Made by a program: the position numbers and the translations under genes. A stretch of DNA of 64,000 nucleotides, taken from NCBI GenBank assembly GCA_964476895.1, contig CAYZCS010000001.1, forward strand, positions 1,351-65,350, read 5' to 3'. How positions within the stretch are numbered: the first letter of the stretch is position 1; each line of letters begins with the position of its first letter. A model generated the notes under the pieces. It was given only the letters and a program-made list of their open reading frames with translations, did not search any database and was not told the DNA's origin. Positions 25,685-41,562 of the stretch are shown piece by piece. This DNA is from an uncultured Candidatus Saccharibacteria bacterium (GTDB taxonomy: Bacteria; Patescibacteriota; SICC01).

Positions 25685-25996
25685 ATGGGCCTTGAGGCCG
25701 GTAACGAGCACCACTACACTGGGGGGCCGGAACAGTGGCAACCCTCACCTTCACCCAGCATTCCCGCGGTGTTCTTCGGAATCATATTCCTGGCGGGTTT
25801 CTTTTTCTTCTTTCTGATGCTCACGTCGGCGCTCCTGATCCATATCCTCGGCGAAATCACGCCGCTGAGCAGCGAAGGCATTCAAGGATCGGTCGGGAGC
25901 ATCATCCTCGTCGTGAACGGGATCCTGGCCGGTATCGGAGCACTGTATATCGGAATAACCTACGCAGCAGAAGAAAGAGGCAAAAGCTCTGCATAA
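25685..25996 (+). CDS. small membrane protein (two predicted TM helices)
   Basis: FFGIIFLAGFFFFFLML and IILVVNGILAGIGALYIGI helices; followed by T3. Confidence 0.5.
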   Translation: MGLEAGNEHHYTGGPEQWQPSPSPSIPAVFFGIIFLAGFFFFFLMLTSALLIHILGEITPLSSEGIQGSVGSIILVVNGILAGIGALYIGITYAAEERGKSSA

Positions 25997-26004
25997 GAAC
26001 ACTT

Positions 26005-26057
26005 CCCCTGACCCACCAACGGTTCTTACGAACCACGGGTCAGGGGGTTCTTTTTGC
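26005..26057 (+). terminator. structured intrinsic terminator, copy T3
   Basis: CCCCTGACCCACCAACGGTTCTTACGAACCACGGGTCAGGGGG then TTCTTTTTG. Confidence 0.7.
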
Positions 26058-26101
26058 AAGGCGAGTCTCGGCCGAACCCGGAATTCAGGCGTAATCGAAC
26101 C

Positions 26102-26185
26102 ATGAACGCCGAGAACCGGCGCGACCGGAAGGACTATCTGCTTGAGCAGACGTTCGAGGCGGGTATCGCGCCGTCGAACGGCCTA
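26102..26185 (+). pseudogene. smpB 5' fragment: diverged duplicate of the smpB upstream region plus the first ~27 codons
   Basis: CCGGAATTCAGGCGTAATCGAACCATGAACGCCGAGAACCGGCGCGACCGGAAGGACTAT... aligns at about 75% nt identity with 23362-23470; encodes MNAENRRDRKDYLLEQTFEAGIA (SmpB: MKVIAKNRRARHDYILEQTYEAGLA) and then runs into the purN 3' end on the opposite strand. Confidence 0.6.
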
Positions 26186-26848
26186 CCCGCGGTGCGGAGT
26201 ACGCGCGCCGGCGACCGTGCAGATCTCGGCGAGGGCGCGGGTCAGCGCCTTGTGCTCCGCCGGCTTGATCCGGGCGTAGAGCTTCTCGACCGTGTCGCCG
26301 TCTTTCACGTCCACCATCGCCCGCTGGAACACCGGCCCCACACCGCCGTCCGGCGTGTGCGCGAAGACGCTCGAACCCGCCCACTTTTGTCCGGCCGCCA
26401 GCACCGCCTGGATCGCGTTCTCGCCAGCCAGGCCCAGGCACGGGTCGGCGAAGTTGCCGTCCGGCAGCTTGAACTTGTGATAGCCCGGGTCGGGGATGAG
26501 TCCCGGATGCACCGAGAGCACCCGCCACGGGAAGTACTTATGGAAGGCTTCGGAGAGGTCGTACGTCCAGCCCGCCAGGACGACCAGGTCCGGGGCATAG
26601 CGCTGGAGCTTGTGGGCCAGGTCCTCCTCGTAGTGCGCGCGGGGCTTCCCGTGCGCGGCGTAGTCCGCGTGGTCCAGCACGACGGTCGGCACGTCCGCCT
26701 CGCGGGCACGCACCAGGCCGTAGGCGCTCTCCTTGTCCGACGCCACCGCCACGACCTGGCCGTCGAACCGCTCGGCCTGGCCGTCCAGCATGGCCTGCAG
26801 GTTGGAGCCGCCGCTTTTGTTCGAGATCAGTACCGCGATGCGTTTCAT
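26183..26848 (-). CDS. purN: phosphoribosylglycinamide formyltransferase
   Basis: MKRIAVLISNKSGGSNLQA N-terminus and the formyl-transferase HPGLIP region. Confidence 0.8.
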   Translation of the reverse strand: MKRIAVLISNKSGGSNLQAMLDGQAERFDGQVVAVASDKESAYGLVRAREADVPTVVLDHADYAAHGKPRAHYEEDLAHKLQRYAPDLVVLAGWTYDLSEAFHKYFPWRVLSVHPGLIPDPGYHKFKLPDGNFADPCLGLAGENAIQAVLAAGQKWAGSSVFAHTPDGGVGPVFQRAMVDVKDGDTVEKLYARIKPAEHKALTRALAEICTVAGARTPHRG

Positions 26849-26960
26849 GTGGTGTGGGTTTTCGGCGGATCCATGCGTGGACCTGCCGTTTGCCGTCATG
26901 ATAGCACGCCTGGGCGTGGCTGGCGGTGCCACGCCGAGCGGTCTCTGCTAGGCTCTAGGC

Positions 26961-27266
26961 ATGCCCCAGGGACCTTCGATGCTGATCCAGTACATCGTCC
27001 GGACCGGCGAGGAAGCGGCCGTGAAAACGGCGGTCGAGCGGTTCGTCGCGGCGATCGCCGAGCATGAGCCGGAGACCCGTTACGAGTCGTGGCTCAAGGA
27101 AGACGGGCGCTCGTTCGCGCACCTGATGACGTTTGCCGACGCGGCCGCGCAGGAGCGGCACAAGGGCGCCGACTACACCAAGGAATTTGTCGCCGTGCTG
27201 TACCCGGCGTGCGAGGAAGAGCCGACGTACGAACCGGTGACGTTAGTCGCGTCAGCCCGCGAGTAG
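26961..27266 (+). CDS. ABM-domain (antibiotic biosynthesis monooxygenase-like) protein
   Basis: about 100 aa; the pattern suggests an alpha+beta barrel (MLIQYIVRTGEEAAVKTAVERFVAAI ... FAHLMTFADAAAQERH). Confidence 0.5.
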   Translation: MPQGPSMLIQYIVRTGEEAAVKTAVERFVAAIAEHEPETRYESWLKEDGRSFAHLMTFADAAAQERHKGADYTKEFVAVLYPACEEEPTYEPVTLVASARE

Positions 27267-28421
27267 CTTCCCTGCCTCGGTGATCACGGCGACCTTCGGG
27301 AGCGGCCGCGCGTTGTAGGTAGAGGCCATCGTCTCGCCGTACGCGCCGGCGGTGCGGATCGCGAGAAGGTCGCCGATCCGGGGCGCCGGAAGCGGGCGGT
27401 CCTTCGCGAAGACGTCCCCCGATTCGCAGACGTTCCCCGCCACCGTGACCCTCCGGCGGCGGCCGCGCGGATTGGTCGCATTCTCGATGTGGTGGTACGA
27501 GCCGTACATCGCCGGGCGCAGCAGCTGGTTGAAGCCGGAATCCACGCCCACGAACGTCTTGTGCGGCGTGACCTTGTAGTCGGTCACGGTCACGAGGAGC
27601 GTCCCAGCTTCCGCCACCAGGTAGCGGCCAGGCTCGAATGCCAGCCGTGGTTCGTAGCCCGCTTCTGCCGTGAACGCCGCCATCGTCTTGTCTATCAGTT
27701 TGCCAAGCTCCGAAATGTTCAGCCGCGGCTCGCCGGGCTGGTACGGCACGCCGAATCCCCCGCCGAAGTCGATATAGTCGAGCGTGTCGAACTGCCGCGC
27801 GGTACCGAGCAGCGCCCGCATCGCTTTGGCGAACAGCGGCGGATCCAGTACGTTCGAGCCGATGTGCTGGTGGATGCCGCTGATCTTCCGGCCGTACTTC
27901 GCGGCGATCCGCTTGGCATCCTTCACCTGGCCGGGATCGATCCCGAACTTGCTGTCCGGCCCGCCGGTCATCACGTGTTTGTGGTGTCCGCCGCCGATCC
28001 CCTGGTTGATCCGCACGCCGAGCGGCCGGCGCTTGGGGAGCCGCTTCGCGAGGTATTCGAGCTGGTGGAGCGAATCCGCGTTCACGGTGGCGCCGCCGCG
28101 GATGGCCGCGTCCAGGTCCGCCGGACTCGCGCTGGCACAGGTGAACGCGATCTGCTTCGGCGTGAAGCCGGCCTGCTTCGCCAGCTGCACCTCGCCCGGG
28201 CTGACCGTTTCCACGTCCGCACCGAGCCGCCGGAGGAGCCGGAGCACCCGCGGGTTCGCGTTCGCCTTCATCGCGTAGTGGATCTCAAGCTTCGGGTAAC
28301 GGATCGCACGGGCCAACTCGCGGTACCGATCCGCGATCACGCGCTCGTCGTACACGTAGAGCGGCGTGCCGAACCGCTTCGCCGCCCGCTTCAGTTCGGT
28401 AAGTCCGGTCGCCTCACGCAT
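27252..28421 (-). CDS. lysA: diaminopimelate decarboxylase
   Basis: YAMKANANP PLP-lysine motif and fold-III decarboxylase motifs (GGGFGVPY, CESGD). Confidence 0.85.
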   Translation of the reverse strand: MREATGLTELKRAAKRFGTPLYVYDERVIADRYRELARAIRYPKLEIHYAMKANANPRVLRLLRRLGADVETVSPGEVQLAKQAGFTPKQIAFTCASASPADLDAAIRGGATVNADSLHQLEYLAKRLPKRRPLGVRINQGIGGGHHKHVMTGGPDSKFGIDPGQVKDAKRIAAKYGRKISGIHQHIGSNVLDPPLFAKAMRALLGTARQFDTLDYIDFGGGFGVPYQPGEPRLNISELGKLIDKTMAAFTAEAGYEPRLAFEPGRYLVAEAGTLLVTVTDYKVTPHKTFVGVDSGFNQLLRPAMYGSYHHIENATNPRGRRRRVTVAGNVCESGDVFAKDRPLPAPRIGDLLAIRTAGAYGETMASTYNARPLPKVAVITEAGKLLAG

Positions 28422-28645
28422 GCGTCCATTCTGGCATATTATTAAGCGTCGCCCGCTGTTTACCTTCAAAACAAGAGAAAGGATCCGCATGGAGACGGAG
28501 ATACTAGGTATCGTCACGATGGACGAGCAAGGAAGAGTCACCCTCGACGGCAGGCAGCTGCCGCTTGGCGCCGGCGATGCTTTCACGGCCACTGGAGCAC
28601 CCCGCTTGGTTTACTTTTTGCCTTTATTAAGTAATATATCTAGCT

Positions 28646-29353
28646 ATGCCTTATCCAGAGCTGTCCGCTTATAGCCAAGAAGACCCTCCCGACCGCTTTC
28701 AACATCGACTGGAAGACGATGTACTACGCACTTGCTTCGGCGAGCGTTCCGGTTATTTCCGAACTGAGATAAATCGGTCAATCGATTGCTATGCAATGGA
28801 TTTCTGTGAAAACGCTTCTTTGCTGCGTGAAGCACGGAAGCATCTCGAGGAGACAGGGAGCATCGCGGTCTTGGACGTGGGTTGTGGCACAGGCCAAGCG
28901 CTATGGAGTTTCCGAGAGTATCTTACACGCCGTGACGACTACGAACCGGACGATCGGCTCACCTTGGTGGGCATCAACATAGACGATTTTCGCAACGAAG
29001 CGGAGAGATGGAAACCCCGTAAAGCAATCAAGGAAGGAATCATTGATTACATTGTCGGTGATGCGCGGATCGTGACGCCACGTCAGGAATTCGACATCAT
29101 TTTTTGCTACGAGGTGCTGATCCACATGTCCGATGAGGATGCGGCGGCGGTCCTTCGAAACACAGAACGAGCGCTTAAGCCGGGCGGCACCATGTACTTC
29201 GGATTCCATCTCGAGCAACTTGAAAGTGAAACGATTGCCGAATACCTCAGGGAACTGAGAGGGTCGGGTGAGGTAGCGGAAAATCTCGTAGAGAATGAAT
29301 TCAGCACGACACGTGCGTTCGTGACGTTTAAGAAAGCCGCCTCCGACCATTGA
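28646..29353 (+). CDS. class I SAM-dependent methyltransferase (small-molecule type)
   Basis: VLDVGCGTGQ motif I; no DNA-MTase DPPY/NPPF motif; GC about 50%. Confidence 0.6.
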   Translation: MPYPELSAYSQEDPPDRFQHRLEDDVLRTCFGERSGYFRTEINRSIDCYAMDFCENASLLREARKHLEETGSIAVLDVGCGTGQALWSFREYLTRRDDYEPDDRLTLVGINIDDFRNEAERWKPRKAIKEGIIDYIVGDARIVTPRQEFDIIFCYEVLIHMSDEDAAAVLRNTERALKPGGTMYFGFHLEQLESETIAEYLRELRGSGEVAENLVENEFSTTRAFVTFKKAASDH

Positions 29354-29386
29354 CTTTCCCGCCTAACAATCGTACAATCCGCGCAC

Positions 29387-29820
29387 GGGGATGCACCGGA
29401 TTCGACGGTGGCGTACCTTGACAGGTTGCCGGCCGAGGACGAACGCTCACCTCGCTAATCACGCGTTCAACGGCATTACAACTGCCAACTTCAAAGAGAA
29501 GCTTAGCGGTGTTGTCGCTTCCGCCCGGGAAAGCATTGCTTCCCTGAGCGATGCGTTCGCCCCGCGACAGCTCTCTCCCATCCGGGCGTAATACCCCGGA
29601 TCGTGCCCGCGCGAGCGCCCGGCTCGCACGGTAGCGCGTCATACTCCGGGCTCATCCGGATTCCCTAGTCTCAGGAAATTCGGAGACACGTTTGAGACTG
29701 GGTAGGCTGCGTTTCGTCCGCTTTCGAGCAGCCTGCTGACAGCAAAAAGTGGACTATGCCGGTAGATCGCCTTTCAACGGTCTCCATCGGACGGGGGTTC
29801 GACTCCCCCCATCTCCACCA
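29387..29820 (+). ncRNA. ssrA: tmRNA (transfer-messenger RNA)
   Basis: 5' GGGGATGCACCGGATTCGACGG pairs with 3' ...GGACGGGGGTTCGACTCCCCCCATCTCCACCA (tRNA-like domain, T-arm, CCA encoded); the tag frame is not resolvable with confidence. Confidence 0.8.
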
Positions 29821-30064
29821 AGCGGCTCTCTGAGCTCACCGGCAATACGCTTGCCGTAAGAAAAATAGCTTTGGAAAGAGATTGGATCGAGAATCACTAC
29901 TGCTCGCAAGAAACGCGATACTTAGGAGCAGCTAGAAAGGAGTTGCCAGTACCTATGCCGGTTTCATTGAGCAAGAATGGCGGCGACTCACTGTTGCAAC
30001 ATTAAGAGACTGACAAAAAGGCCCTGGCATAAAGCTCGAAGATATTTTCAAAGTCTTGTAGCAT

Positions 30065-32023
30065 CTACACGCTAGTCACCTGCTCAACCAGATCCTCTGC
30101 TGTGGCTTCTTTCGATATTTTCTTTTTTTGAAATTCAAGTTGTTTTAGCACAAAATCTAACCGCAAATTCACTTCTGTAAAAATTTCACTCCAGGTTTTT
30201 ACGTAAATTTCATAGTTGTCGACACTCTGAATAAGTGATTTCTTGCCATGAACTTTGGCACTTTTTTGCTCTCGTTTTATATAACCCGAGGTGTCAAATT
30301 TGTTCCCCACTAGATAAAACTCCCACTTCATATTTGGAGCATTAAATTCACTCTGCTCAAGAATGACCCCCATGTACTTTTTAACCTGATCCAGCTCTTT
30401 GGCTCCGAGCCTAACCGTAGGCTTTTTGAGTTCCACCACGATGTTATGAATCTCATCATTTTCTTTTAGCTGTCGACAAAGAAATATATCCATTTGCTTA
30501 CGCTTGTCTGGATGGTCAATTTTGACGTTCTTCTTTTCGTCTCGTAAAAGATATAAGTACCGACGAAGAGCCTCTTCAAATACTGGCTCTGCCTCTGTGA
30601 CTAGATGGAATCTTTCCCCAAAAATCCAATAAGACGAAGCTACGATTGTTTGAACATGCGGCACTTCTTTAGCTCTAACATTGTCGTCAAAAACAAGTTT
30701 CTTTAGAGCCTGCAAGTCTTTGTTTCGTCTCTCAAGCATTCGAGTCGTCGCGACCATGCGTGACATATTTGTACTTTGCAGAAGCTCAGCCAATTCCCTG
30801 CGCTCGCTTCTATCAAGATCTACTATTTCCTCAATAATTTTTAGTAGATTTTCCGTTTCATTAGTGTCGATTAAGAGATTCAATAAGCCAACAAAGGTCT
30901 TTTTTTGCTCAATGTTGAGTGTAGAAAAAATTTTAGGCTCGAGCTTGTAGAGGTCCTTAACTAAAACCTGAAGATGCTCTTTTCTAATTTGGTCAAATTC
31001 AGACTCAAGCTCCGGAAAGACCTTTTCGCTCTCATACTCTTTTACTAGATTGTCTGCATTGGTTTTTAGGAAAGGCTTTCTCAACTTTCTCAAATACCCC
31101 GAGAGTTCCTTCTGAAGAAACTTAAACTCAGGACTTGAACGATCAACCCCTATCAAAGTAGATTGATTTTTCTTTTCCTTTCCAAAGCCAAAGTTATCAA
31201 AGAACGAGGATTTGATGTAAACACTGTGATAAAAATCATCACCTTTTCTGTTCAAAGTAGTAAATTCTTTCCACTTTTCTTTATCTTTGGAGTCAATGTA
31301 GTAATACTGCGACCACTCCTTATTTAGACTTTCCTTCCATCGAACGTATGAGATATGAAACTTTGTATTGCTCTCTTCGTGAGTGAACTCTGTTTCCTTT
31401 CTGTCTCCAATCAATGCTGTGTAATCCAGCTCTTCTCCATTAATAAGAATCTTGAACGCTTTACTTTTATTTAGCTCTAAAAACCATCCAAACTCTCTTA
31501 CGAGGAAAGGTTGTAACTCTTGCTCGATCTGCGTTCTCGTAAAATCAAATATTGACGAAAGTATTACTTCTGTCCCTGGTTTTTCAGTAGTGATTTTTGG
31601 AGTCGTCGGATTAAAGAGATCGAGTCGTTTTGAATCAGCCTTAATCCGATACTTATGCCTCTTGCCAGCCTTCTTGTACACCGTTTCCCATGAAGCTTCA
31701 TTAGCAAACTTAAAGAAAGTTAGTCTGCCTACACCAGTTCGTCCGTGCAGTTGAGATTGATTGAAAGTTTTTTCGGCAAATTTCTCGGAATCATGAAATC
31801 TCCGAAATTTTTCTTCGAGCTTTGAGTGATCAATTCCATATCCATTGTCACGAATAGTGATAGAAGAAAGGTTGCCTATCGCATTACTATCAAATTCCAG
31901 TTCGACTTTGGTTGCATTGGCATCAAAGCCATTCCAAATGTACTCAGCAAGGGATCGATTTCTATCATAATTATCAAGAACCTGCTTGATACCCACCGAG
32001 GTAATTCGAACGCTTTTGCTCAT
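30065..32023 (-). CDS. GHKL-family ATPase (MORC/HATPase_c_3-like N-domain) with a C-terminal PD-(D/E)xK-like nuclease module
   Basis: Bergerat-fold boxes: N-box EYIWNGFDA, G1 IRDNGYGI, G2 HGRTGVGRL; C-terminal MDIFL...IVVELKKP (D...ExK pattern); 652 aa; 38% GC. Confidence 0.65.
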   Translation of the reverse strand: MSKSVRITSVGIKQVLDNYDRNRSLAEYIWNGFDANATKVELEFDSNAIGNLSSITIRDNGYGIDHSKLEEKFRRFHDSEKFAEKTFNQSQLHGRTGVGRLTFFKFANEASWETVYKKAGKRHKYRIKADSKRLDLFNPTTPKITTEKPGTEVILSSIFDFTRTQIEQELQPFLVREFGWFLELNKSKAFKILINGEELDYTALIGDRKETEFTHEESNTKFHISYVRWKESLNKEWSQYYYIDSKDKEKWKEFTTLNRKGDDFYHSVYIKSSFFDNFGFGKEKKNQSTLIGVDRSSPEFKFLQKELSGYLRKLRKPFLKTNADNLVKEYESEKVFPELESEFDQIRKEHLQVLVKDLYKLEPKIFSTLNIEQKKTFVGLLNLLIDTNETENLLKIIEEIVDLDRSERRELAELLQSTNMSRMVATTRMLERRNKDLQALKKLVFDDNVRAKEVPHVQTIVASSYWIFGERFHLVTEAEPVFEEALRRYLYLLRDEKKNVKIDHPDKRKQMDIFLCRQLKENDEIHNIVVELKKPTVRLGAKELDQVKKYMGVILEQSEFNAPNMKWEFYLVGNKFDTSGYIKREQKSAKVHGKKSLIQSVDNYEIYVKTWSEIFTEVNLRLDFVLKQLEFQKKKISKEATAEDLVEQVTSV

Positions 32024-32060
32024 ACGAGTATCTTACCAGTCAGACTTTTGCGATTTTCTT

Positions 32061-33080
32061 TCATGATTCAAATTTCCCAATCTCGGCATACCAATCAATT
32101 GTATCTACCAAATCTAGATCGCACGGCACAGGATTATCCTCGATAAATTTAGCCTCAAAATACTGGTTCCAGTAAGCTTCGGCTGATCGCCGAGGATGGT
32201 TTGCAAGCCACGAATCAAAGTAGTCGAAGTGAACGTCGTAGTGGTGTGTATGCATGAAGTCGTCCCACGTACCTTGCAACTGGTCAGCATCAGCACCTGG
32301 TCGGGCAATAATCTCGAACTGCTCAAATTCACGTTTTTCTTTTGAGCCCCAGCCCTTTTTTAGCTGCTCCATCGCTGCTACATCCGAATCTGGCGCGCGA
32401 TAACCAAAAACCGTTACCCATGCCGCGGATTTTAGTGCTTCCGTTAGACGCAGCCACTCGCTGGCGATAAACGGATTTTCCTCATAATTCTTCTCGTTGA
32501 CCGGATACAACAAGGGCACAGGACTGAAAGTTTTCTTGCAAACACTACAATTATTCCCAACTGTTCCGGCAATCCGATCTTTCTCGCATATCCCAACCAT
32601 GACATTGCCATGAAGAAACGCTAGCGGCGGCCGCGACAAAGTCCTCCGGCCACTTCTTGCGTAAGCTTGCATTAAAAGCGGATCCCAATTGAAGCTGGCA
32701 ATTAAGTCCTTATCTCGAAGTGACAAAATAAGGTGATCGTAGATTGTCGGATCATCTGGAATCTGGAAGCGCTCGTAATATTCATGAATGGCTTCATCTA
32801 TCTTGTCTGCAATCTCCGCTTTCGACCGATCCAACCGTAGATCTGAATAGGCAGACTCAAAATCCTCAACGTCGCCTAAGCCAGCCTCTTCCAGCAGAGG
32901 AGCAACAGTTTCTATTTTCGATAGACCTTTCATGTCAGTCGGTCGCTTCCCGTTCCTGTCTCCATTAGGCAGAGCAGCAATACTTGCGCCGGCGCCGAGA
33001 ATTACAACATGTGGCTTACCGGCAAAAGGCTTTTCAACCTCTTGCTCTTTAGTAACTTCAGAACCAGATGACGCTGCCAT
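32061..33080 (-). CDS. SIR2-like (sirtuin/DHS-like NAD-binding fold) protein
   Basis: VVILGAGASIA (GAGxS), FNWDPLL (TTNYD-like), LAFLHGN (catalytic HG), Cys-x12-Cys-x2-Cys, VTVFGYRAPDSD; 37 bp upstream of the GHKL gene on the same strand. Confidence 0.65.
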   Translation of the reverse strand: MAASSGSEVTKEQEVEKPFAGKPHVVILGAGASIAALPNGDRNGKRPTDMKGLSKIETVAPLLEEAGLGDVEDFESAYSDLRLDRSKAEIADKIDEAIHEYYERFQIPDDPTIYDHLILSLRDKDLIASFNWDPLLMQAYARSGRRTLSRPPLAFLHGNVMVGICEKDRIAGTVGNNCSVCKKTFSPVPLLYPVNEKNYEENPFIASEWLRLTEALKSAAWVTVFGYRAPDSDVAAMEQLKKGWGSKEKREFEQFEIIARPGADADQLQGTWDDFMHTHHYDVHFDYFDSWLANHPRRSAEAYWNQYFEAKFIEDNPVPCDLDLVDTIDWYAEIGKFES

Positions 33081-33124
33081 GCGCTAATCATAACTTTACC
33101 CGCGTCTGATTGCCGACTGCCGGT

Positions 33125-33580
33125 CTAGCTAAAACGATCAAGCCAAAGCTCTAGCACAAGCCGGGTGTTTCCTTGCTTCATTGCATTGACGTAGCTCTGC
33201 AAGTAATCAAGGTTAGATGCGAATAGCTTCATTTCCCCTTCCACCGCTTCAGAATCGTCCGCTGACAATCCCCACTCCCGCTTAAAGACGGCGGCCTCTT
33301 CCTCGGTCGCTTGCCCTTCACGCAAGCGCTTGAGGTGTCTCAATATCGTCAGATTGGCTTCCTGTTGCCCCTTGATCCAGTCGATCACCTGATGTGTCAT
33401 CCTGTTCGGTAATTCCCCCACTGGAGCAAGTCCGGAGAGGTCGTGAACAGGCTCTTCGTCCGTTTCTATCATTTCGACCCAGTTGGTTGGCCTTCTATCA
33501 TCGGCTTCCGCGCCGTCTACCAGCGAGTCGGCAGAATGAATCAGGACTTCATAGTCAGGGATTTGAAACTCTGTTGGCAT
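33125..33580 (-). CDS. hypothetical protein
   Basis: 151-aa ORF; GC about 52%. Confidence 0.45.
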   Translation of the reverse strand: MPTEFQIPDYEVLIHSADSLVDGAEADDRRPTNWVEMIETDEEPVHDLSGLAPVGELPNRMTHQVIDWIKGQQEANLTILRHLKRLREGQATEEEAAVFKREWGLSADDSEAVEGEMKLFASNLDYLQSYVNAMKQGNTRLVLELWLDRFS

Positions 33581-33670
33581 AGCCAGGCATAGTACCAGCC
33601 TTACCCCCTACATAGTAGTAAGCTCGATTACTTCACCGTGGCTACTTCAGCGACTGACCCGAAAAAGGAG

Positions 33671-34198
33671 TTAGCTCTCCGACAACGTGAACTCAACAGC
33701 CGTCTTGCCAGGCCCCCGCTCCCATAAATCGGTCACGACCGCCCCAGCAGCAGACAGCTGTTCGATTACGCGGTCGGGATCGGCAGTGATGACCTCGTGG
33801 GACTCCGTATCTCCGGGGTTTAATACCGCCGTGTCCTCTTCCTGGAGAACGTCCGCCAGCTCGATGCCGAACTGGAGCAAACGTTCGCTTGGCGTCTCGT
33901 GTAGCGTCACTTCCAGAACCGGTTTTCCCCTGTCATAGCCGGTTACCTTGTCCGCGTATCGCTGCCGGAAAGTCACCGGAGGGTGCGAGAATTCCCCGGC
34001 GCGATACAGCTTGGCCGTCACGGTGCCGACAGTGCTAATGGCGTCCGCATAACTTTCTACACGCCACTTGTCACTGCCCCCCAGCGCCTGCGTCAGACGA
34101 TCGGCGACAGGCTTCCTCGCACCTTTCGGGCGCCGCTTTGCCGCTTCTTTTGCTTCATGTTCCGCACGCCAAGCCGCCCTTCGTTCTGCTCGAGTCAT
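33671..34198 (-). CDS. hypothetical protein
   Basis: 175-aa ORF with a basic N-terminus. Confidence 0.45.
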   Translation of the reverse strand: MTRAERRAAWRAEHEAKEAAKRRPKGARKPVADRLTQALGGSDKWRVESYADAISTVGTVTAKLYRAGEFSHPPVTFRQRYADKVTGYDRGKPVLEVTLHETPSERLLQFGIELADVLQEEDTAVLNPGDTESHEVITADPDRVIEQLSAAGAVVTDLWERGPGKTAVEFTLSES

Positions 34199-34293
34199 TG
34201 CAATCCCATTGGTTTAGTAATACGACAAACAAGCTTAGCAAAAAACATTTATCCGTGGGAACCGGCTCACTGTAAGTTATCTCGTCGGTTCCA

Positions 34294-35154
34294 TCACGCC
34301 CCGACGGAAAAATGCTCGAGAATCTCCAGAATGCCGTTTTCGTCTACCGATGCACCGATGTACGAATTGCTTTCACCTTTGGCCCTTACCAGGTCCTTGA
34401 GTTCATTGGTGCCATTCTCCAATGTGGCCACATAGCCGCAGCGCTGCATGAATCCCCAATCGCTCGTACTGTCCCCGACGCCGAGCGCCTGTTCGAAAGA
34501 ACCACCAAGGTCCTTAAGCACCGCCTCGGCTCCGGCCTGTTTCGAACTACCCGGCGTGGTGACGATGCCGTACTGCAGGGGCAAAGCCACGGGATGCACG
34601 CCCCAGCTCAAGGAAACACGGTCGCCATACGTTTCCAGCAGTTTCCGGATGCGACCCTTGTCCGCCTCGTCCTGAGCGATCGGCATGACCTTGGTGACCT
34701 CTTCTTGAGCCGCCCGTTCCGGCAATGAGTCCACTACGACGGGTTCCCGCTGGAGTATCTGCGCATGCTTCGGCGTAATGTGCGAGACTTGGTCAGCCTG
34801 GATGAAGTAATCGTCCACCGTGTAGAACTCGACATACACGTCGTTCTCCAGGCAGGTAGCGAGGGTTTCCTTGACCAGATCCTGCGCCAAGACGTGCTTC
34901 TCGACGACGACGCCATCGATCGGATCGATGATCACGGCGCCCGCATCGGTGACATGCGGATTATCCAGTGCCGCGCCTTCGATGATGTCACCGATCGAGT
35001 AATGCGGCTTGGCAGTGCACAGTGAGATCGATACACCTGCGGCATGCAGCTGCTTCAATCTCTGCAGCACGTCGGGATGGGGCGAAGGGGTGTTGTAACC
35101 GACCTTCTCGCCGACGATCACGCCATCGATATCCAGAATGAGGTATTTAATCAT
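34294..35154 (-). CDS. HAD-superfamily hydrolase (Cof-like, subfamily IIB)
   Basis: LILDIDGV DxDG motif, cap domain, GDSTSD motif IV. Confidence 0.65.
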   Translation of the reverse strand: MIKYLILDIDGVIVGEKVGYNTPSPHPDVLQRLKQLHAAGVSISLCTAKPHYSIGDIIEGAALDNPHVTDAGAVIIDPIDGVVVEKHVLAQDLVKETLATCLENDVYVEFYTVDDYFIQADQVSHITPKHAQILQREPVVVDSLPERAAQEEVTKVMPIAQDEADKGRIRKLLETYGDRVSLSWGVHPVALPLQYGIVTTPGSSKQAGAEAVLKDLGGSFEQALGVGDSTSDWGFMQRCGYVATLENGTNELKDLVRAKGESNSYIGASVDENGILEILEHFSVGA

Positions 35155-35163
35155 GTGTCACTA

Positions 35164-35934
35164 CTAGGCGCTGAAAACGCCCTCCTTGAGTTCAATCAAC
35201 TCTTCGCACACCGCCTTGCTACCAGCGATGATATCCAACTGGCGGTAGTCGTAGGTTTCGCTCCCGATGTTCACGACCGTTCCGCCGGCCTCTTCCACCA
35301 GCAGGCATCCGGCCGCGTAATCCCACACCTGGCCGTAGCCGTCCTTCACGATGCGGGCATCGAACTTACCCGACGCTACCATCGCGTGCTCGAAGCCACT
35401 GTTCATGGTATTCACCAATTGGGTCCGATCGCGCAGCGCTTCGTACATCCCGTTCATCGCTTCCGGTTTCCCCTCCAATGCGATCATCGCCCGGCGCAGC
35501 GGCCGGTCGCTGACCTTTATGGCCTCACCATTCATGAACGCGCCCTCTCCACGGACGGCCGAATAGTAGCGATCGTTCACGAAGTCATAGATCGCCCCCA
35601 CCACCGCGTGCCCGTCTTCGACGTATGCCGCCATCACGGTGCAGAAGGGCATGCCGCGGATGAAGTGTTCGGTCCCGTCGATCGGATCAATCAACCAGAG
35701 GCGTTCCTCGCTCCCCTGTTTTCCGAATTCCTCACCATGGACTCCGACCCCTGGAGTAATCTCGAGCAATTCTTTCGCCAGGAATTCTTCGATCTCGTGA
35801 TCGAGCTGTGTGACCGTCGTCTCGTCGTCCTTCACGTCCACGCGCGCCACGGCACCGTAATACGGAAGCAGCTTCTCACCGGCCTTCTTCATGACCGGCT
35901 CGAGCGCCTGGGATATTTCGGTGTGTTCGGGCAT
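35164..35934 (-). CDS. inositol monophosphatase family protein
   Basis: WLIDPIDGT motif and the metal-binding EE...DP(I/L)DG pattern. Confidence 0.75.
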   Translation of the reverse strand: MPEHTEISQALEPVMKKAGEKLLPYYGAVARVDVKDDETTVTQLDHEIEEFLAKELLEITPGVGVHGEEFGKQGSEERLWLIDPIDGTEHFIRGMPFCTVMAAYVEDGHAVVGAIYDFVNDRYYSAVRGEGAFMNGEAIKVSDRPLRRAMIALEGKPEAMNGMYEALRDRTQLVNTMNSGFEHAMVASGKFDARIVKDGYGQVWDYAAGCLLVEEAGGTVVNIGSETYDYRQLDIIAGSKAVCEELIELKEGVFSA

Positions 35935-35981
35935 GGAGACTACTTAAGCGTCATCAGCGCGTCCCGCGCCATGTCCCTATC

Positions 35982-36647
35982 TTATGTCTTGCCGTCGTCA
36001 CGGGCCATTACGTCTTGCACTTTCAAGCCAACCTCTGCTGCCAGGTGCGGTGCCAGTAGCGCGAGCTGCAAAGAATCGATGACCGCGCCTTTCAGACTGG
36101 CGATGCCCCGGATACCCACGATATCGGATGACCGCAAATCCAGTCCCTTTGCACTGATGCCTGAAAACTCGACGTCTGCCAACTGACAACGCTCGAAAGA
36201 GACATGCTCGAATGTCGCACCCTGGAAGTCCGCCTCCCGCAAATCACACTCCTTGAAGCAGACACGTACGAACTTCGTGAACCGGAATGTCGCCAAATCG
36301 CACTTACTGTCGCTGATCACCGCGTCCCGCAGTTCGGACTCGTACAGCTTGATGCCGGTGAGCCGGCTGTCCTCGATGGTAATCCGGTGCATGCTCGCCC
36401 CGACACAATCAGCTGCGACTAGCTGGCAGGCGTTGAACGACGCATCCATCACGTCGAGCTTTTTCAGTTTCGCGCGAGACCAGTCGATTCCCTTGAGGCG
36501 TGCAGCATCGAACGACACATTGGGAAGATCGGCTTCTGCAAGATCCGATCCCTCTGCCCTGACGTTCTGGTAGCTACTTCCACCAACCATGCGTTTGAGT
36601 GGTTCCAGCGAACCCGTGATGTTCGGACGAGTAATGGACCGTGCCAT
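35982..36647 (-). CDS. pentapeptide-repeat protein
   Basis: tandem A(D/N)LxxAxL-type pentapeptides throughout. Confidence 0.7.
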   Translation of the reverse strand: MARSITRPNITGSLEPLKRMVGGSSYQNVRAEGSDLAEADLPNVSFDAARLKGIDWSRAKLKKLDVMDASFNACQLVAADCVGASMHRITIEDSRLTGIKLYESELRDAVISDSKCDLATFRFTKFVRVCFKECDLREADFQGATFEHVSFERCQLADVEFSGISAKGLDLRSSDIVGIRGIASLKGAVIDSLQLALLAPHLAAEVGLKVQDVMARDDGKT

Positions 36648-36725
36648 GTATCCACTCTACTGCCCGCTTGGTGGAACAGCTAGCAGGGTCGACGCCGCGC
36701 TTAAGGCTCCCTATTAGTACTTTAT

Positions 36726-37235
36726 TTATAGAATCTTCGTCTGACCGTTCGGACCGAATAGTTCTCGCTTAGCTTTCTTGTACTCCGCCTCACTTTTACC
36801 TTCGAAACGGCGCTTCAATGCGTTGTATCGCTCAAGTAGCTCCCTGTTCGAACGCAACACATCCCGTACATTCGCGAAATCATCGTACGCGGAACCAACG
36901 ACGGTCAGCTGGATACCTACGGGAATCGCTGGATTAGCGTGATCTTCGAAGCTCGCAAAGCCATCGGTCCAGATTGTGTTCTCATGTCGGGGATTAAATC
37001 TACTGCGCAGTACGGCCTTCGCATTCTCAAAATCGCCTCCGGACACACTGACCTGGATATCTAAGTCCCCTTTCGTGATGGATCCCGGCACCGCCGTGCT
37101 ACCAACGTGCTGCACGTTTGCGCCAGGAAGCAACTCTAGAAGTAACTCCCGATAGCGCTCGAATTCCGTGTCGGCCGTTTCCTGGATTTCCTCGACGGGC
37201 ACGAAACGCACTTGAATAAAGCTACTTCCCCTCAT
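36726..37235 (-). CDS. GrpB-family protein (nucleotidyltransferase-like)
   Basis: HVGSTAVPGSITKGDLDIQV signature. Confidence 0.65.
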   Translation of the reverse strand: MRGSSFIQVRFVPVEEIQETADTEFERYRELLLELLPGANVQHVGSTAVPGSITKGDLDIQVSVSGGDFENAKAVLRSRFNPRHENTIWTDGFASFEDHANPAIPVGIQLTVVGSAYDDFANVRDVLRSNRELLERYNALKRRFEGKSEAEYKKAKRELFGPNGQTKIL

Positions 37236-37313
37236 TCTCCTTAATTCTAACCTTCACGATCTTCCGCACCAGCGCGACGATCCTCTGTCCGCCGCGGTTC
37301 TTAATCGCCTGCT

Positions 37314-38102
37314 TCACTTAATCCCTTTCAACCACCGTACCGTCGAGGCATACAGCTTTTCCGCTACGCCGTCTTCCTCGAAGCAGTGCCCCGCCCCTCG
37401 GATGACCTCATGAGCGCTCTTCCCCTGCGCGTTCTCCGCATACCGGCGACTCCCGCGCAGCACGCCGTTTCCAGCGGTAATGACCTTGAGTGGGTACGCG
37501 ATGTCCTTTCCGAGCTCTTCCCACGGAATGTTCGCATCCACGTCGACCATCCGTTTACCGAACAGGTAATCGACATACCCACGTATCCGGTACGCTTTCA
37601 GGCGCGGCTCGTACTTACTGCGCGAGCGGAGCAGCGCGAGCTTGTAGCTCGGGTCCCACAGCACCGCACCGTCCAAATCCTTGTCCTTCGACAGCAGGAT
37701 CGTCGTGCCGCCGTAGCTGTGCCCGACGGCGAAGATCTTCCGTTTGCCATGCTTCCGGAAGTACGCCACGACCGCGTCGAAGTCGGCGGCATGCGTCTTC
37801 AGCGTGGCTTGGCGGAGCGGCCGGCTGTCGTACAGGTAGTAGCGAAACGACGAAAAGCCCTGCTGCTCCAGGTACCGCGCGCCGTTGTAGAACTGGTGCT
37901 CGTTCGGATCGCCGGTCAGCCCGTGTACGAAGATTACCAGCGGCTTGGTCAGCGGTCCGCGCAGGAACCCCTTGACCGACTTCCCGCCGCCGACCGGCAT
38001 TCGGACGATTCTCTCCTTGGCTGCCATGCGCCCATCGTACTGCACCGGCTGTATAGCTGCTTTCATTAAGAGTAAATCTGGCATATAAAAGAAGTCGCAC
38101 AT
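37314..38102 (-). CDS. alpha/beta-hydrolase
   Basis: GHSYGG nucleophile elbow; start uncertain (several in-frame Met; MAAKER at ~38027 plausible). Confidence 0.6.
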   Translation of the reverse strand: MCDFFYMPDLLLMKAAIQPVQYDGRMAAKERIVRMPVGGGKSVKGFLRGPLTKPLVIFVHGLTGDPNEHQFYNGARYLEQQGFSSFRYYLYDSRPLRQATLKTHAADFDAVVAYFRKHGKRKIFAVGHSYGGTTILLSKDKDLDGAVLWDPSYKLALLRSRSKYEPRLKAYRIRGYVDYLFGKRMVDVDANIPWEELGKDIAYPLKVITAGNGVLRGSRRYAENAQGKSAHEVIRGAGHCFEEDGVAEKLYASTVRWLKGIK

Positions 38103-38197
38103 TCACAGCATTGGTTCCGGAACCGGCTGTCGCGAGCCATCAATCGTGACGTCCAACCGGAACCAAGGGTCCAACTCGGACCAGATCGGAGCAGACC

Positions 38198-38809
38198 ATG
38201 CGTTGTTATACCGTCTCGGACGGCAAGCTGAGCGAGGGCATCGCGGTCAACGTGGATCGCATCCCCTATACTGTCAGGTCTTCCCCCCAGGTGGGATCCG
38301 AGGACCACCTCATCCTCGGCCTCGGCCTTCGCGACATCCCTCCCCCTGACATCTATCGGGGTGAGGTGTTCCGCGCCGACTGGGATATGTACGGTGCCAG
38401 TGACCTCAAGCCGATGCTCCGGAAGGAGCGTGACGCCGGGCCAAACACCCAGACCGGGTTGCTCGTGCGGATCGTCGTGCCCAGGGCGGGATACGACAGC
38501 AGGCCCTTTTTCCTGACGATCAATGGTGACGCCCACCTCCTTGCGGGGCTGTACCGGGACGAGCACTCACGTACGAAGCGGTTCGCGAAGGATGGCAGCT
38601 TCAGGGAGATGGACGCCGTGTACTACTTCCAACCCGACTCCATCGCGAGGTTGACCTACTGGAAGCTGAGGTCGTCGGAGCGCTCTCCCGGTTCGCCCTG
38701 CGACTTCGCGCTCTTCTGCACCCAGGACGGCAAGCTCGGAATGGTCACCTGGGATCACTTCGCGGAGGAGTGCATCGCTACGCCGACCGGGACGGTCGTC
38801 GCCGTCTGA
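38198..38809 (+). CDS. hypothetical protein
   Basis: 203-aa ORF; no motif recognised. Confidence 0.45.
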   Translation: MRCYTVSDGKLSEGIAVNVDRIPYTVRSSPQVGSEDHLILGLGLRDIPPPDIYRGEVFRADWDMYGASDLKPMLRKERDAGPNTQTGLLVRIVVPRAGYDSRPFFLTINGDAHLLAGLYRDEHSRTKRFAKDGSFREMDAVYYFQPDSIARLTYWKLRSSERSPGSPCDFALFCTQDGKLGMVTWDHFAEECIATPTGTVVAV

Positions 38810-38899
38810 TTCACACCGGGGAACGGACCGTGATTCATGCACACCAGCATGCAGTCGCACCTTCCCCACTCTCCTGAGTGCATCTCCTTACGGAGGTGG

Positions 38900-38960
38900 G
38901 CTGAGGAGGTGCCCATATCCCGCCACTGCCGACGTTCACCAGCCAGTGAATGGCCACTTA
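38900..38960 (-). pseudogene. 3'-terminal remnant of a PhnB-like/VOC-family gene
   Basis: minus-strand frame reads VAIHWLVNVGSGG and matches the C-terminus ...KYGIHWMVNVGSGEMGSA of the intact paralog at 41134..41562; preceded by a stop, so no upstream body remains. Confidence 0.55.
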
Positions 38961-39091
38961 GTCAGCAGACCAAGCGTACATAAACCCATCGTAGAGGCAC
39001 TTATATGATTGGTCGCTTGTTATTACCCCCGACAGGCGCATGCTACAAGCAAGATTCAATAAACTGAGCAGCGTTGACGCCTGCTTAGGGG

Positions 39092-39976
39092 GTGGGAATG
39101 AAAAGGTTCAAACATACGACGGTATCCGCACTGGTTGCCGCTTTGGCGATCGGTTTTCCGGCGCAGGCCCTGGCCCAAGAGGCTCCGGTAGAACTCGGCA
39201 CCACCGAGGACTTCGCGGTCTTGGCCGGCACCGAGATCACCAACGTCCCCACTTCCGACATCACCGGAGACGTGGGCCTGAGCCCGGGCACCGGTGCCGC
39301 GATTACCGGACTGACCTGCGCGGAGGTGACCGGTACGATCTACGACGTTGACGGTACGTATCCGGACACCTGCGAGGTAACCGATCCCGCCCTGCTGACG
39401 ACGGCCAAAAACGACCTGGTTACGGCATATGACGATGCCGCCGGACGCACGCCGACCGAGACGTTCGCCGGCGGCGACAACCAGCTCGGCGGACAGACGC
39501 TGACCTCCGGCGTCTACGCGTTCGGCGCCGCGTCGACCGCCAACCTGGTCGGCACGCTGACGCTTAACGGCCAGAACGACCCGGATGCGGTATGGATCTT
39601 CCAGGCCTCATCCACCCTGGTAACGGCATCGAGCAGCGTGGTGAGTCTCACCAACGGCGCCCAAGCCTGCAACGTCTTCTGGCAGGTTGGCAGTTCCGCC
39701 ACGCTCGGATCCGACTCCGTGTTCGTCGGGACCATCATGGCCCTCACTTCCATCGGGTTGGATACCGGCGCCACCATCAACGGGGGCCAGGCGCTGGCAC
39801 GTGACGGCGCGGTCACCCTGGACCAGAACGTCATCACCGACTCGGCATGTGCGCTCTCCGAGCCCCCCGACGACGATGATGGTGATGACACGGACTCCGG
39901 TTCTGACACCGGCTCACTCGCCGCCGGCGATATCGTTCCCAAGCTACCGAACGCCGGAGCCGGTCCTCGCAACTAG
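39092..39976 (+). CDS. secreted DUF3494 (ice-binding-like) domain protein ending in an LPNAG sortase-like motif
   Basis: signal peptide MKRFKHTTVSALVAALAIGFPAQALA; DUF3494-like repeats (FAVLAGTEITN...GDVGLSPGTG); C-terminus ...KLPNAGAGPRN-stop with no hydrophobic anchor. Confidence 0.6.
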   Translation: MGMKRFKHTTVSALVAALAIGFPAQALAQEAPVELGTTEDFAVLAGTEITNVPTSDITGDVGLSPGTGAAITGLTCAEVTGTIYDVDGTYPDTCEVTDPALLTTAKNDLVTAYDDAAGRTPTETFAGGDNQLGGQTLTSGVYAFGAASTANLVGTLTLNGQNDPDAVWIFQASSTLVTASSSVVSLTNGAQACNVFWQVGSSATLGSDSVFVGTIMALTSIGLDTGATINGGQALARDGAVTLDQNVITDSACALSEPPDDDDGDDTDSGSDTGSLAAGDIVPKLPNAGAGPRN

Positions 39977-39994
39977 GACACGCCCTGCCAAGAT

Positions 39995-40591
39995 ATGCCT
40001 GCGGATAAGCCAGTTCGTCGCCGGATCTTCGCAGCCGTGATCGGCGTAGCGCTGGCCGGAGCGCTGGTCTCGTTCGGGTTGCTCGGATTGCTCGGGCCGT
40101 TCCGAACCGATTCGCCGCCGCGTACCGCCGAAACCACGGCGGTTCAGGTGGGCGTGCCGGTGCACCTGGAAATCCCGAAGATCGGGGTGGATGCGGCGAT
40201 CGAGCTTACCGGCCTGACGCGTCAGGGATTGATGGGCGTCCCGAAAGACCCCGACAACGCCGCCTGGTACAAGCACGGGCCGCGCCCCGGTGAGATAGGG
40301 AGCGCGGTGATCGACGGGCACTTCGACTGGGACAACGGGACCCCCGCGGTGTTCGATGATCTCCACAAGCTGCGGCCCGGCGACAAAGTGATGGTTACGG
40401 ACCGGCACGGCACGATCATCTCGTTCGTCGTGCGGAAGTCCCGGAACTATAGTCCGGAGGCAGATGCCACCAGCGTGTTCCGTTCCAGCGACGGGAAAGC
40501 CCACCTCAACCTGATCACCTGCACCGGCGTGTGGAACCAGGATCGAGACAGCTACTCACAACGTCTCGTGGTGTTCTCCGATCGGGAATAG
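39995..40591 (+). CDS. sortase (class E/F-like transpeptidase)
   Basis: N-terminal signal anchor, LEIPKIGV, catalytic His region, TLITCTG catalytic Cys motif. Confidence 0.75.
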   Translation: MPADKPVRRRIFAAVIGVALAGALVSFGLLGLLGPFRTDSPPRTAETTAVQVGVPVHLEIPKIGVDAAIELTGLTRQGLMGVPKDPDNAAWYKHGPRPGEIGSAVIDGHFDWDNGTPAVFDDLHKLRPGDKVMVTDRHGTIISFVVRKSRNYSPEADATSVFRSSDGKAHLNLITCTGVWNQDRDSYSQRLVVFSDRE

Positions 40592-40606
40592 CCAGGCAGA
40601 GATCTT

Positions 40607-41137
40607 CTATTTTCCCGCGGCCGCCCGCTCCAGCTCCGCGACGTCGATCTTCTTCATCGTGAGCATCGCGTCCATCACCCGGCCGGCCTTCTCCTTGTCC
40701 GGATCGGTCATCAGCTCGCCGAGCCGCTTCGGGACGATCTGCCAGGACAGGCCGTACTTGTCTTTCAGCCAGCCACACTGCTCCGACTCGGGCACCGCGG
40801 AGAAACGCTCCCAAAAGTAGTCGACTTCCGCCTGGTCCGCACACTCCACGTAGAACGAGACGCTCTCGTTGAATGTGAATATCGGTCCGCCGTCGAGCGC
40901 CATGAACCGCTGGCCGGCCAGCTCGAAGATCGCGGTGAGCACCTTGCCTTCCATGTCTTTCATCGGACCGACCTGCTTACCTTCCGGATACCGCTCGATG
41001 CTGACGATCCGCGACTCCGCGCGCTTCCCTGGCGCGGCGCTGAAGGTGTCCACGTAGAAGGTGATCGCCTCCTCGCACTCCTTGTCGAACCACAGGCTGG
41101 GAACGATCTTCTGCGTACGCTGCGTATCCTCCGTCAT
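40607..41137 (-). CDS. VOC/PhnB-like family protein
   Basis: KYGLSWQIVP signature, glyoxalase-like fold pattern. Confidence 0.65.
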   Translation of the reverse strand: MTEDTQRTQKIVPSLWFDKECEEAITFYVDTFSAAPGKRAESRIVSIERYPEGKQVGPMKDMEGKVLTAIFELAGQRFMALDGGPIFTFNESVSFYVECADQAEVDYFWERFSAVPESEQCGWLKDKYGLSWQIVPKRLGELMTDPDKEKAGRVMDAMLTMKKIDVAELERAAAGK

Positions 41138-41562
41138 GCCGAACCCATCTCGCCGCTACCGACGTTCACCATCCAATGGATGCCGTACTTGTCGGTCACC
41201 ATACCGAAGAGGTCACCCCAGAACGCTTTCTCCAGCGGCATCGTCACCGTGCCGCCCTCGCTGAGACCGTCGAAGCACTCCCGGAGCTTCTGCTCGTCCG
41301 AGCCGTTGATCGAGAGAGCCACGTTCGTCCCGGCCACGTAGTCCTCGTCCTTCGGGCCGTCACTGGCGAACAGGCTCACCGCCCCGCCCTGGAGCGACGC
41401 GTGCATGATCAGCGCCTGCTTTTCCTCCGGAAAGTCCATCGGCGTGTCGCCGAACGTCTGCATCTGCAGCTCGCCGCCGAAGATGCCACGGTAGAATTCC
41501 ATGGCTTCCTTGGTCTTGCCGTCTTTGAAGCTGAGATACGGGGTCAGGGTCGTGTCGCTCAT
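41134..41562 (-). CDS. VOC/PhnB-like family protein (tandem paralog)
   Basis: DKYGIHWMVNV; 4-nt overlap with the downstream paralog. Confidence 0.65.
   Translation of the reverse strand: MSDTTLTPYLSFKDGKTKEAMEFYRGIFGGELQMQTFGDTPMDFPEEKQALIMHASLQGGAVSLFASDGPKDEDYVAGTNVALSINGSDEQKLRECFDGLSEGGTVTMPLEKAFWGDLFGMVTDKYGIHWMVNVGSGEMGSA

Follow-up and report, generated by a model that had tools for sequence, protein, structure and literature searches.

A composite accessory region beside the tmRNA gene of an uncultured Saccharibacteria bacterium differs from its closest relatives and carries two candidate single-gene defence proteins

The tandem genomic islands at ssrA, the gene of the transfer-messenger RNA (tmRNA), in Dehalococcoides have been described with a 20-bp direct repeat and a CcrB-like integrase (PMC3146451), and genomic islands carrying defence genes are already established in Patescibacteria (PMC12455944). 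In the classification of Shedu systems, type I-D consists of a GHKL ATPase and a DUF4263 nuclease (10.1101/2023.08.10.552793), and the GHKL-DUF4263 Shedu protein VcSduA protects against phages experimentally (PMC12137116). Here, we analyzed a stretch of 64,000 nucleotides (hereafter the window) of contig CAYZCS010000001.1 from an uncultured Candidatus Saccharibacteria bacterium, in which an earlier note, made from the sequence alone, had described a low-GC accessory region of about 10 kb anchored at the tmRNA gene. We found that the region starting at the 3' end of ssrA is accessory and composite, that its content differs wholly from that of the closest relatives while its anchors stay syntenic, and that the two genes nearest to ssrA encode a GHKL ATPase-nuclease and a protein with a SIR2 fold.

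Relatives of the locus were collected with the protein of lysA, the diaminopimelate decarboxylase gene to the left of ssrA. Genome and metagenome scans yielded 2 close loci, and about 158 other loci were distant and uninformative for synteny. The LysA protein was 90% identical in the closest relative, L001 (a 638-kb contig of a metagenome-assembled genome labelled 'Patescibacteria group bacterium' in NCBI), 85% in L161/L162 and in L164, 83% in L163 and 81% in L081, and the next best match fell to 60%. The lysA gene adjoins the tmRNA gene in L001, L161/L162, L163 and L081, and the DNA of L164 is too short to tell. BLASTN showed that L001 is syntenic with the window at 14948-28438 and 40614-43611, with 85-94% identity, and that 10.8 kb of the window (29821-40606) faces 7.1 kb of unrelated DNA, in which tblastx found two short remnants only. 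On the left, divergence from the window begins at the first base after ...CATCTCCACCA, the CCA end of the tmRNA gene, in L001, L161 and L163, and the BLAST homology of L081 also stops at the tmRNA end. On the right, L001 and the window become homologous again precisely at 40607, the stop codon of a PhnB-like gene. Judged by synteny with L001, the closest relative, the right boundary is at 40606. The PhnB-like remnant at which the earlier note had drawn the edge (38960) does exist, but the boundary lies beyond it, and the DUF3494/sortase pair, to the right of that edge, falls inside the variable stretch despite its native composition. The same gene order was not found in any readable relative. 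These results support that the region is accessory, as none of the relatives with readable DNA there carries it at the syntenic position.

The part next to ssrA, hereafter slot 1, is hypervariable; its two limits are the CCA end of the tmRNA gene and a DUF1801 stop codon. Between identical landmarks, its counterparts measure 2,730 bp in L001 (GC 0.445) and 3,235 bp in L161 (GC 0.466). A three-way comparison of the window, L001 and L161 showed no relation between the contents of their slots, and L163 and L081 differ again; none of the slot 1 genes of the window, the two phosphatase genes included, was found at the loci of the relatives. DUF1801 itself is an intact gene of 96 amino acids in L161 and a remnant in L001, as it is in the window. 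The genes right after ssrA encode an HNH protein in L001 (PDC-M68A, 5.5e-25; similar to CBASS/PDC-M68 effectors), Vsr and HNH proteins in L081 and a DUF2326 protein in L163, and the L161 slot next to ssrA holds unknown genes only. The lowest-GC DNA adjoins ssrA in the window, L001 and L161. Three contigs end shortly past the tmRNA 3' end, after 53 bp in L162, 275 bp in L163 and 1.2 kb in L081, which suggests that assemblies break where co-existing strains differ.

Upstream of ssrA, the spacer to lysA has changed separately. It is about 0.9 kb long in the window and almost nothing in L001, L161 and L081. The segment that carries a methyltransferase gene has a GC content of 0.52 and is specific to the window: it was found in none of L001, L161/L162 and L081, in which lysA and ssrA are adjacent, and L163 carries a different insert. 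To its left stands the beginning of a small gene (METEILGIV...LPLGAGDA), which aligns with a 110-amino-acid protein of L163 with a score of 91; the homology ends at codon 31 in the local alignment. To its right, the homology of L001 resumes at 29338-29341, ahead of a promoter-like site of ssrA. The methyltransferase is a separate event upstream of ssrA that displaced most of a small gene in the lysA-ssrA spacer, and not a part of an insertion at ssrA, as had been proposed. In L163 (800-1682) and L164 (1-931), tandem small paralogous genes of about 90-110 amino acids, beginning METELLG... and with a related family, lie upstream of lysA; they belong to no known family.

Beyond slot 1, an alpha/beta hydrolase gene precedes a second variable stretch. 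The hydrolase is 73% identical in amino acids to a gene of L161, and a remnant of 41 amino acids is left in L001 at 78% identity, where EamA, methyltransferase and other genes took the place of the rest. Because of this identity in L161 and the remnant in L001, the hydrolase is an older resident shared within the clade and not newly inserted cargo, as which it had been listed before. At the position of the following stretch (38103-40606), L001 and L161 have nothing comparable. The two PhnB-like genes that anchor the right side are 87.5% and 93% identical to those of L001 at the amino acid level. A PhnB2-like remnant inside the stretch matches the C-terminus of the gene at 41134-41562, with 83% nucleotide identity to 41147-41182; apart from it, a general repeat search of 28-42 kb gave short, chance-level pairs only.

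The composition of the region was compared with 43 core windows of 2 kb (GC 0.648, sd 0.023; tetranucleotide distance 0.218, sd 0.029). From this reference, the GC content of the 28-38 kb windows departs with z from -3.1 to -11.5 and their tetranucleotide distance with z from +3.9 to +23.9, so that the drop in GC noted earlier near the tmRNA gene is real; from 39 kb rightward, the 2-kb windows are typical of the core in both measures. In windows of 1 kb, GC is 0.655-0.678 over lysA, falls to 0.59 and then 0.53 across 28.0-29.5 kb, reaches a minimum of 0.38-0.39 at 30-32 kb, and rises to 0.43-0.50 at 31.5-33.5 kb, 0.54-0.59 at 33-37.5 kb and 0.60-0.61 at 37-39.5 kb before returning to 0.63-0.65 further right. 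The 38% core of the earlier note is reproduced by these values, and its high-GC upstream DNA as well, but the value of about 68% given there is slightly high against a mean of 0.65. GC at third codon positions (GC3) is 0.78-0.88 in most unambiguous core genes (lysA, 0.88). In the region it is 0.39 for the GHKL gene, 0.45 for the SIR2-like gene, 0.56 for the methyltransferase, 0.58 for GrpB, 0.59 and 0.65 for the open reading frames (ORFs) of 151 and 175 amino acids, 0.67 for the pentapeptide-repeat gene, 0.71 for HAD, 0.77 for IMPase and 0.79 for the hydrolase. Since neighbouring genes differ in GC3 over a range of 0.39-0.79 and internal junctions are marked by three truncated remnants (small gene, DUF1801 and PhnB2-like), the results support a region that is composite in composition and in history, with several events and several donors; a composite island rather than a single recent element had also been the earlier view. 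Clustering of about 15 billion sequences at 90% identity left five of the island proteins as singletons. No donor can be named, since identity to the best homologue is only 53% for the GHKL protein and 60% for the SIR2-like protein. Whether the mosaic was built at the present site or arrived partly pre-assembled, the data fit both alike.

The region begins at the tmRNA 3' end, as integrase-mediated islands at ssrA and tRNA genes do, and it combines the two marks of a genomic island, atypical composition and absence from the relatives' syntenic site. The traces of site-specific integration were then sought in the window and in the relatives. A search with the 25-mer of the tmRNA 3' end, allowing up to 3 mismatches, gave no second copy in the window, and across the whole 64 kb there was no shared k-mer of at least 12 nucleotides and, outside tRNA T-arms, no match of at least 22/30. 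No such repeat was found in L001, L161, L163 or L081 either. Pfam detected no recombinase domain in the principal ORFs (about 100 amino acids or longer) between 27.2 and 42.3 kb, and in tblastn against the window, four queries (three large serine recombinases, a fragment of a tyrosine integrase) gave no match below E 0.19. Because neither an integrase nor a tmRNA 3'-end repeat was found in the window or the relatives, integrase/att-type insertion at ssrA is not demonstrated. Of the successive insertions at ssrA that the earlier note proposed, the accessory nature and the start exactly at the ssrA 3' end hold, and the mechanism does not follow.

We think it fairly probable that the locus is a strain-specific, non-mobile hotspot of the flexible genome flanking the single tmRNA gene, with three parts that turn over independently and a cargo that is swapped by recombination anchored on the flanks. 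The parts would be the lysA-ssrA spacer, with the methyltransferase segment in place of most of a small gene; the hypervariable slot 1, with 7.4 kb of low-GC foreign genes; and the variable stretch of near-native composition up to the PhnB-like genes. The cargo would first arrive on mobile elements, which we infer because homologues of both defence-type genes lie on viral or prophage contigs and beside recombinases. It would then be kept, swapped or deleted through recombination on the flanks (ssrA on one side, DUF1801, hydrolase or PhnB on the other) and through local deletions, and a resident integrase would play no role. Within the cargo, the GHKL protein would act as an ATP-controlled PD-(D/E)xK nuclease and the SIR2-fold enzyme would presumably consume NAD, and the two genes next to ssrA are most likely independent single-gene anti-phage effectors. 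The phosphatases, pentapeptide-repeat protein, GrpB-family protein, hydrolase, surface protein and sortase would be miscellaneous accessory cargo.

Several alternatives were weighed against this explanation. A possible but less probable account is that elements with their own integrases, as in Dehalococcoides, inserted one after another at the 3' end of ssrA by site-specific recombination, and that the integrases and attR were later lost to leave fixed, decayed islands. The boundary coincides with the CCA end of the tmRNA in all relatives, the lowest-GC DNA adjoins ssrA in three of the loci, SIR2-like homologues occur beside large serine recombinases and in one case near an integrase fragment, and the Dehalococcoides islands, with their 20-bp repeat and CcrB-like integrase (PMC3146451), offer a precedent. 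However, no repeat of the tmRNA 3' end of at least 12 nucleotides exists in the window, which covers 34 kb downstream, or in L001 and L161 over 9-10 kb downstream of ssrA, the island ORFs lack recombinase domains, the four tblastn queries left no trace in the window, and three genomes would each have had to lose these hallmarks on their own. A single recent transfer of the whole low-GC block (about 29.8-37.2 kb), already mosaic in its donor, we regard as unlikely. The nine genes at 30065-37235 are co-oriented with short spacers, none of them is present at any relative's locus, and five of the nine have no relative at 90% identity or more in the collection; but the block spans GC3 values of 0.39 to 0.77, the GHKL gene and the SIR2-like gene occur together in none of the 27 other loci, the best homologues are only 53-60% identical, so that a donor block did not emerge, and the DUF1801 and small-gene remnants represent additional separate events. 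Two further readings have very little probability, a chimera that the metagenome assembly created at the conserved tmRNA gene and a conserved native region of odd composition. The source is indeed a metagenome-assembled contig of 78,989 bp, and conserved RNA genes can seed mis-joins. Both readings were rejected on synteny: a chimera is excluded because the lysA/ssrA and PhnB-like flanks are linked at a similar distance on the independent 638-kb contig L001, and the relatives do not share the genes in between, which rules out a conserved native region.

Some points weigh against the swapping of cargo on conserved flanks. Only three relatives offer more than 3 kb beyond ssrA, and DNA identity to the closest of the relatives is about 85-94%; individual gain and loss events can therefore be neither ordered nor dated. 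Simple divergence of unconstrained spacers would likewise put breakpoints at gene ends, and replacement driven by recombination has been deduced, not observed. The ssrA gene is a classical target of integrases, so decayed integrative elements are a serious alternative. The relatives were compared at the locus only, and genes absent there could lie elsewhere in their genomes. The defence activity of the GHKL nuclease and the SIR2-fold protein is predicted, and one SIR2-like homologue lies inside a purine-biosynthesis operon, a context outside defence. On balance, we slightly favour flank-anchored swapping over decayed integrative elements.

The GHKL protein combines an N-terminal ATPase with a predicted C-terminal nuclease. 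In the alignment of its homologues, N31, D34, D59xGxG63 and G94-G99 are invariant, as is the nuclease motif D512...E531xK533; the latter and the HSDR_N_2 match speak for a PD-(D/E)xK nuclease. Foldseek showed that the N-terminal two-thirds fold like Hsp90, MutL and MORC (320-420 columns, E about 1e-11), and the hits obtained with the whole model were confined to the N-terminal half. The PADLOC model of SduA/DUF4263 matches weakly and partially, with E 3.9e-5 over 60 residues (410-472). The protein matches the phage family phrog_6203 over its full length (3e-70), and homologues are present on six viral contigs. Elsewhere, the homologues are stand-alone genes among restriction-modification, TIR, AbiU2 and HicB genes, that is, in defence islands. 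These features make the protein of 652 amino acids a candidate single-gene defence protein, a GHKL-type Shedu-like nuclease. In Dehalococcoides mccartyi (L168, 5001-11841), a homologue stands between a cluster of MmeI-like methyltransferase, PLD-helicase and HicB genes and reductive-dehalogenase genes, close to the contig end.

The neighbouring protein of 339 amino acids has no match in Pfam, NCBIfam or PADLOC (E up to 0.01), including the curated SIR2 and SIR2_2 models, and sequence searches of the PDB with the protein or with a profile of 53 sequences found no match. Its AlphaFold model (pLDDT 91.4) was informative in the fold search that bore out the earlier SIR2 assignment, which sequence models had not: the top 32 Foldseek matches in the PDB all belong to the SIR2 family (CobB, archaeal Sir2, ThsA and SIR2-HerA), with probability 1.0 and TM 0.32-0.52. 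The family counts 3,416 homologues, and the 120 matches listed carry no Pfam domain. In an alignment of 53 homologues, GAGAS (G29-S33), FNWDP (N131xD133), LHGN (H157) and the cysteines C165, C178 and C181 are invariant, and the three cysteines suggest a sirtuin-like zinc module. The model and motifs support a SIR2 fold for this protein, outside every curated sequence family. The homologues (family loci L165, L166 and L170-L185) are stand-alone, and 16 IMG/VR viral contigs carry them. In 5 of 14 loci they stand beside one or two large serine recombinases; apart from these, no conserved partner was found in the 14 other loci.

The adjacent SIR2 and GHKL genes had been read as one cassette. We rejected a two-gene system, as the two never co-occur in 27 other loci and differ in GC content. 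Because the SIR2-like gene is stand-alone elsewhere and is never with the GHKL gene in those loci, the adjacency is a chance neighbourhood of two independent single-gene modules. The defence content of slot 1 comprises the GHKL nuclease and the SIR2-fold protein in the window and HNH, Vsr and DUF2326 proteins in the relatives, and PADLOC recognised no complete known system. From these gene contents, the slot beside ssrA appears to behave as a small defence hotspot in this clade, within a limited sampling of 4-5 genomes.

The coordinates of the anchors, junctions and genes are collected in Table 1.

Table 1. Anchors, remnants and genes of the region around ssrA, in window positions; amino acids are abbreviated as aa.
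Feature	Position	Strand	Evidence and remarks
lysA (diaminopimelate decarboxylase), conserved left anchor	27252..28421	-	Pfam Orn_Arg_deC_N 2.2e-43; start set by alignment with L001
Small-gene remnant, first 31 codons	28489..28581	+	Intact gene upstream of lysA in L163 and L164
Class-I SAM (S-adenosylmethionine) methyltransferase insert, lysA-ssrA spacer	28582..29337 (ORF 28646-29353)	+	Pfam Methyltransf_11/12/25, E ~1e-13
ssrA promoter-like site TTGACT-17-TACAAT	29350..29378	+	Best consensus match in region, 10/12; conserved in L001
tmRNA gene (ssrA)	29387..29820	+	Rfam RF00023, 151.8 bits, model 1-374, full length
Slot 1, tmRNA CCA end to DUF1801 stop codon	29821..37221		7,401 bp; GC 0.50; nine co-oriented genes
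GHKL ATPase fused to PD-(D/E)xK nuclease, 652 aa	30065..32023	-	HATPase_c_3 4.7e-20; HSDR_N_2 6.6e-4; GC 0.386
Stand-alone SIR2-fold protein, 339 aa	32061..33080	-	Fold search; large unnamed family; GC 0.475
Hypothetical genes, 151 aa (33125-33580) and 175 aa (33671-34198)	33125..34198	-	Both singleton clusters at 90% identity
HAD (Cof-type) phosphatase	34294-35154	-	Hydrolase_3 9.5e-26; singleton cluster
IMPase-family phosphatase	35164-35934	-	Inositol_P 3.3e-52; singleton cluster
Pentapeptide-repeat protein	35982-36647	-	Pentapeptide_4 3.6e-30
GrpB-family protein	36726-37235	-	GrpB 6.8e-19
DUF1801 remnant, last 17 codons and stop (ALVRKIVKVRIKENEGK, then stop); distal landmark of slot 1	37222..37275	-	54 bp; conserved in L001 and L161
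Alpha/beta hydrolase	37314..38102	-	Abhydrolase_6 2.4e-9
Variable stretch 2	38103..40606		Near-native composition; GC3 0.79-0.84
Unknown ORF, 203 aa, in stretch 2	38198-38809	+	
PhnB2-like remnant	38923-38988	-	22 codons with in-frame stop; E 1.5e-4 in 1.2-kb search space
Ice_binding/DUF3494	39092-39976	+	1.3e-61
Sortase	39995-40591	+	Sortase 8.7e-24
Two PhnB-like (3-dmu-9_3-mt/VOC) genes, conserved right anchor	40607..41562	-	PF06983 1.4e-39 and 7.1e-10

Pfam confirmed the genes that had been named beforehand from the sequence, namely those for the methyltransferase, GHKL, HAD, IMPase, pentapeptide-repeat, GrpB, alpha/beta hydrolase, DUF3494, sortase and PhnB-like proteins. The HAD and IMPase genes are 9 bp apart. 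The listed ATG of the GrpB gene falls inside the DUF1801 remnant, and its true start is probably a GTG near 37208. For the ORFs of 151, 175 and 203 amino acids, nothing significant was found in Pfam, NCBIfam, PHROGs or PADLOC.

The full-length Rfam match shows that the tmRNA gene is genuine, as had been supposed, although ARAGORN gave no call at this position. The gene is 72-85% identical to the tmRNA genes of four relatives (L001, 84.6%). Its tag frame is unusually long, with 35 codons at 29484-29591 (ANFKEKLSGVVASARESIASLSDAFAPRQLSPIRA, then stop); that of L001 has 32 codons (ANFKEK...SPVRA, then stop) and ends as in the window with a different middle.

Small indels are common throughout the otherwise syntenic stretch shared with L001. 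Window-specific segments of about 0.9 and 0.8 kb lie at 20243-21157 and 41602-42384, with ORFs that lack a Pfam match. Another one of 1.2 kb (24956-26193, GC about 0.55) corresponds to about 70 bp in L001 and holds two 45-nucleotide hairpin repeats that are 96% identical (25528-25572 and 26005-26049); at 26078-26171, it contains a second copy of the first smpB codons and the DNA upstream of them, 77-90% identical to the original (23364-23463). The flank ORFs at 41571-42272, 24311-26094 and 20227-21069 had no Pfam match, and some of them may be spurious frames in high-GC DNA. At the window edge (1-4000), four tRNA genes (Trp, Thr, Tyr, Thr) lie in a second atypical stretch (GC 0.52-0.57, tetranucleotide z up to +10.9), which may be another tRNA-linked accessory region.

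Islands linked to ssrA are already well known, and the present one does not change the understanding of them. The locus shows a small-genome, uncultivated lineage that keeps a replaceable store of accessory and defence genes beside an essential RNA gene. The tmRNA CCA end, the DUF1801 stop codon and the PhnB-like stop codon can serve as landmarks for strain-level tracking in metagenomes. Two widespread and poorly annotated single-gene families emerge as leads, the GHKL-PD-(D/E)xK nucleases, related to a validated Shedu subtype, and the unnamed SIR2-fold family. As a tentative suggestion, the ssrA flank in this high-GC genus may be an integrase-free hotspot of defence genes, whose alleles are exchanged via tmRNA-anchored recombination with no self-mobile element, and the SIR2-fold protein may be a new single-gene anti-phage effector.

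Compared with described systems, the locus resembles the ssrA islands of Dehalococcoides (PMC3146451) in its low-GC, strain-specific DNA that starts from the 3' end of a single-copy ssrA and breaks synteny, in the small genome and in the several origins of its modules. There, 20-bp direct repeats derived from the ssrA 3' end mark the island borders, and a conserved integration module with a serine integrase is frequent; a search found neither here. With defence islands and hotspots, including the islands of Patescibacteria (PMC12455944), it shares conserved flanks, content that varies among relatives and an apparent richness in nuclease or defence-type genes; in contrast to them, its status as a hotspot comes from 4-5 genomes, and half of the cargo consists of metabolic and surface genes. 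The SIR2-fold protein shares the SIR2 Rossmann fold and the GAGAS, NxD and His motifs with SIR2 effectors (ThsA of Thoeris, SIR2-HerA and DSR) and with sirtuin deacylases (CobB). Unlike Thoeris, SIR2-HerA and DSR, it has no SLOG, HerA, pAgo or other partner and no extra domain; its best fold matches are CobB-type deacylases, and its reaction could be that of an NADase or a deacylase. The GHKL nuclease, whose resemblance to the PADLOC SduA model is weak and partial, is likened to VcSduA by its architecture. Like type I-D Shedu and VcSduA, it is a single polypeptide with a GHKL (HATPase_c_3) domain, an Hsp90/MutL-like middle domain and a predicted C-terminal PD-(D/E)xK nuclease, and like them it is encoded by a stand-alone gene found in defence neighbourhoods.

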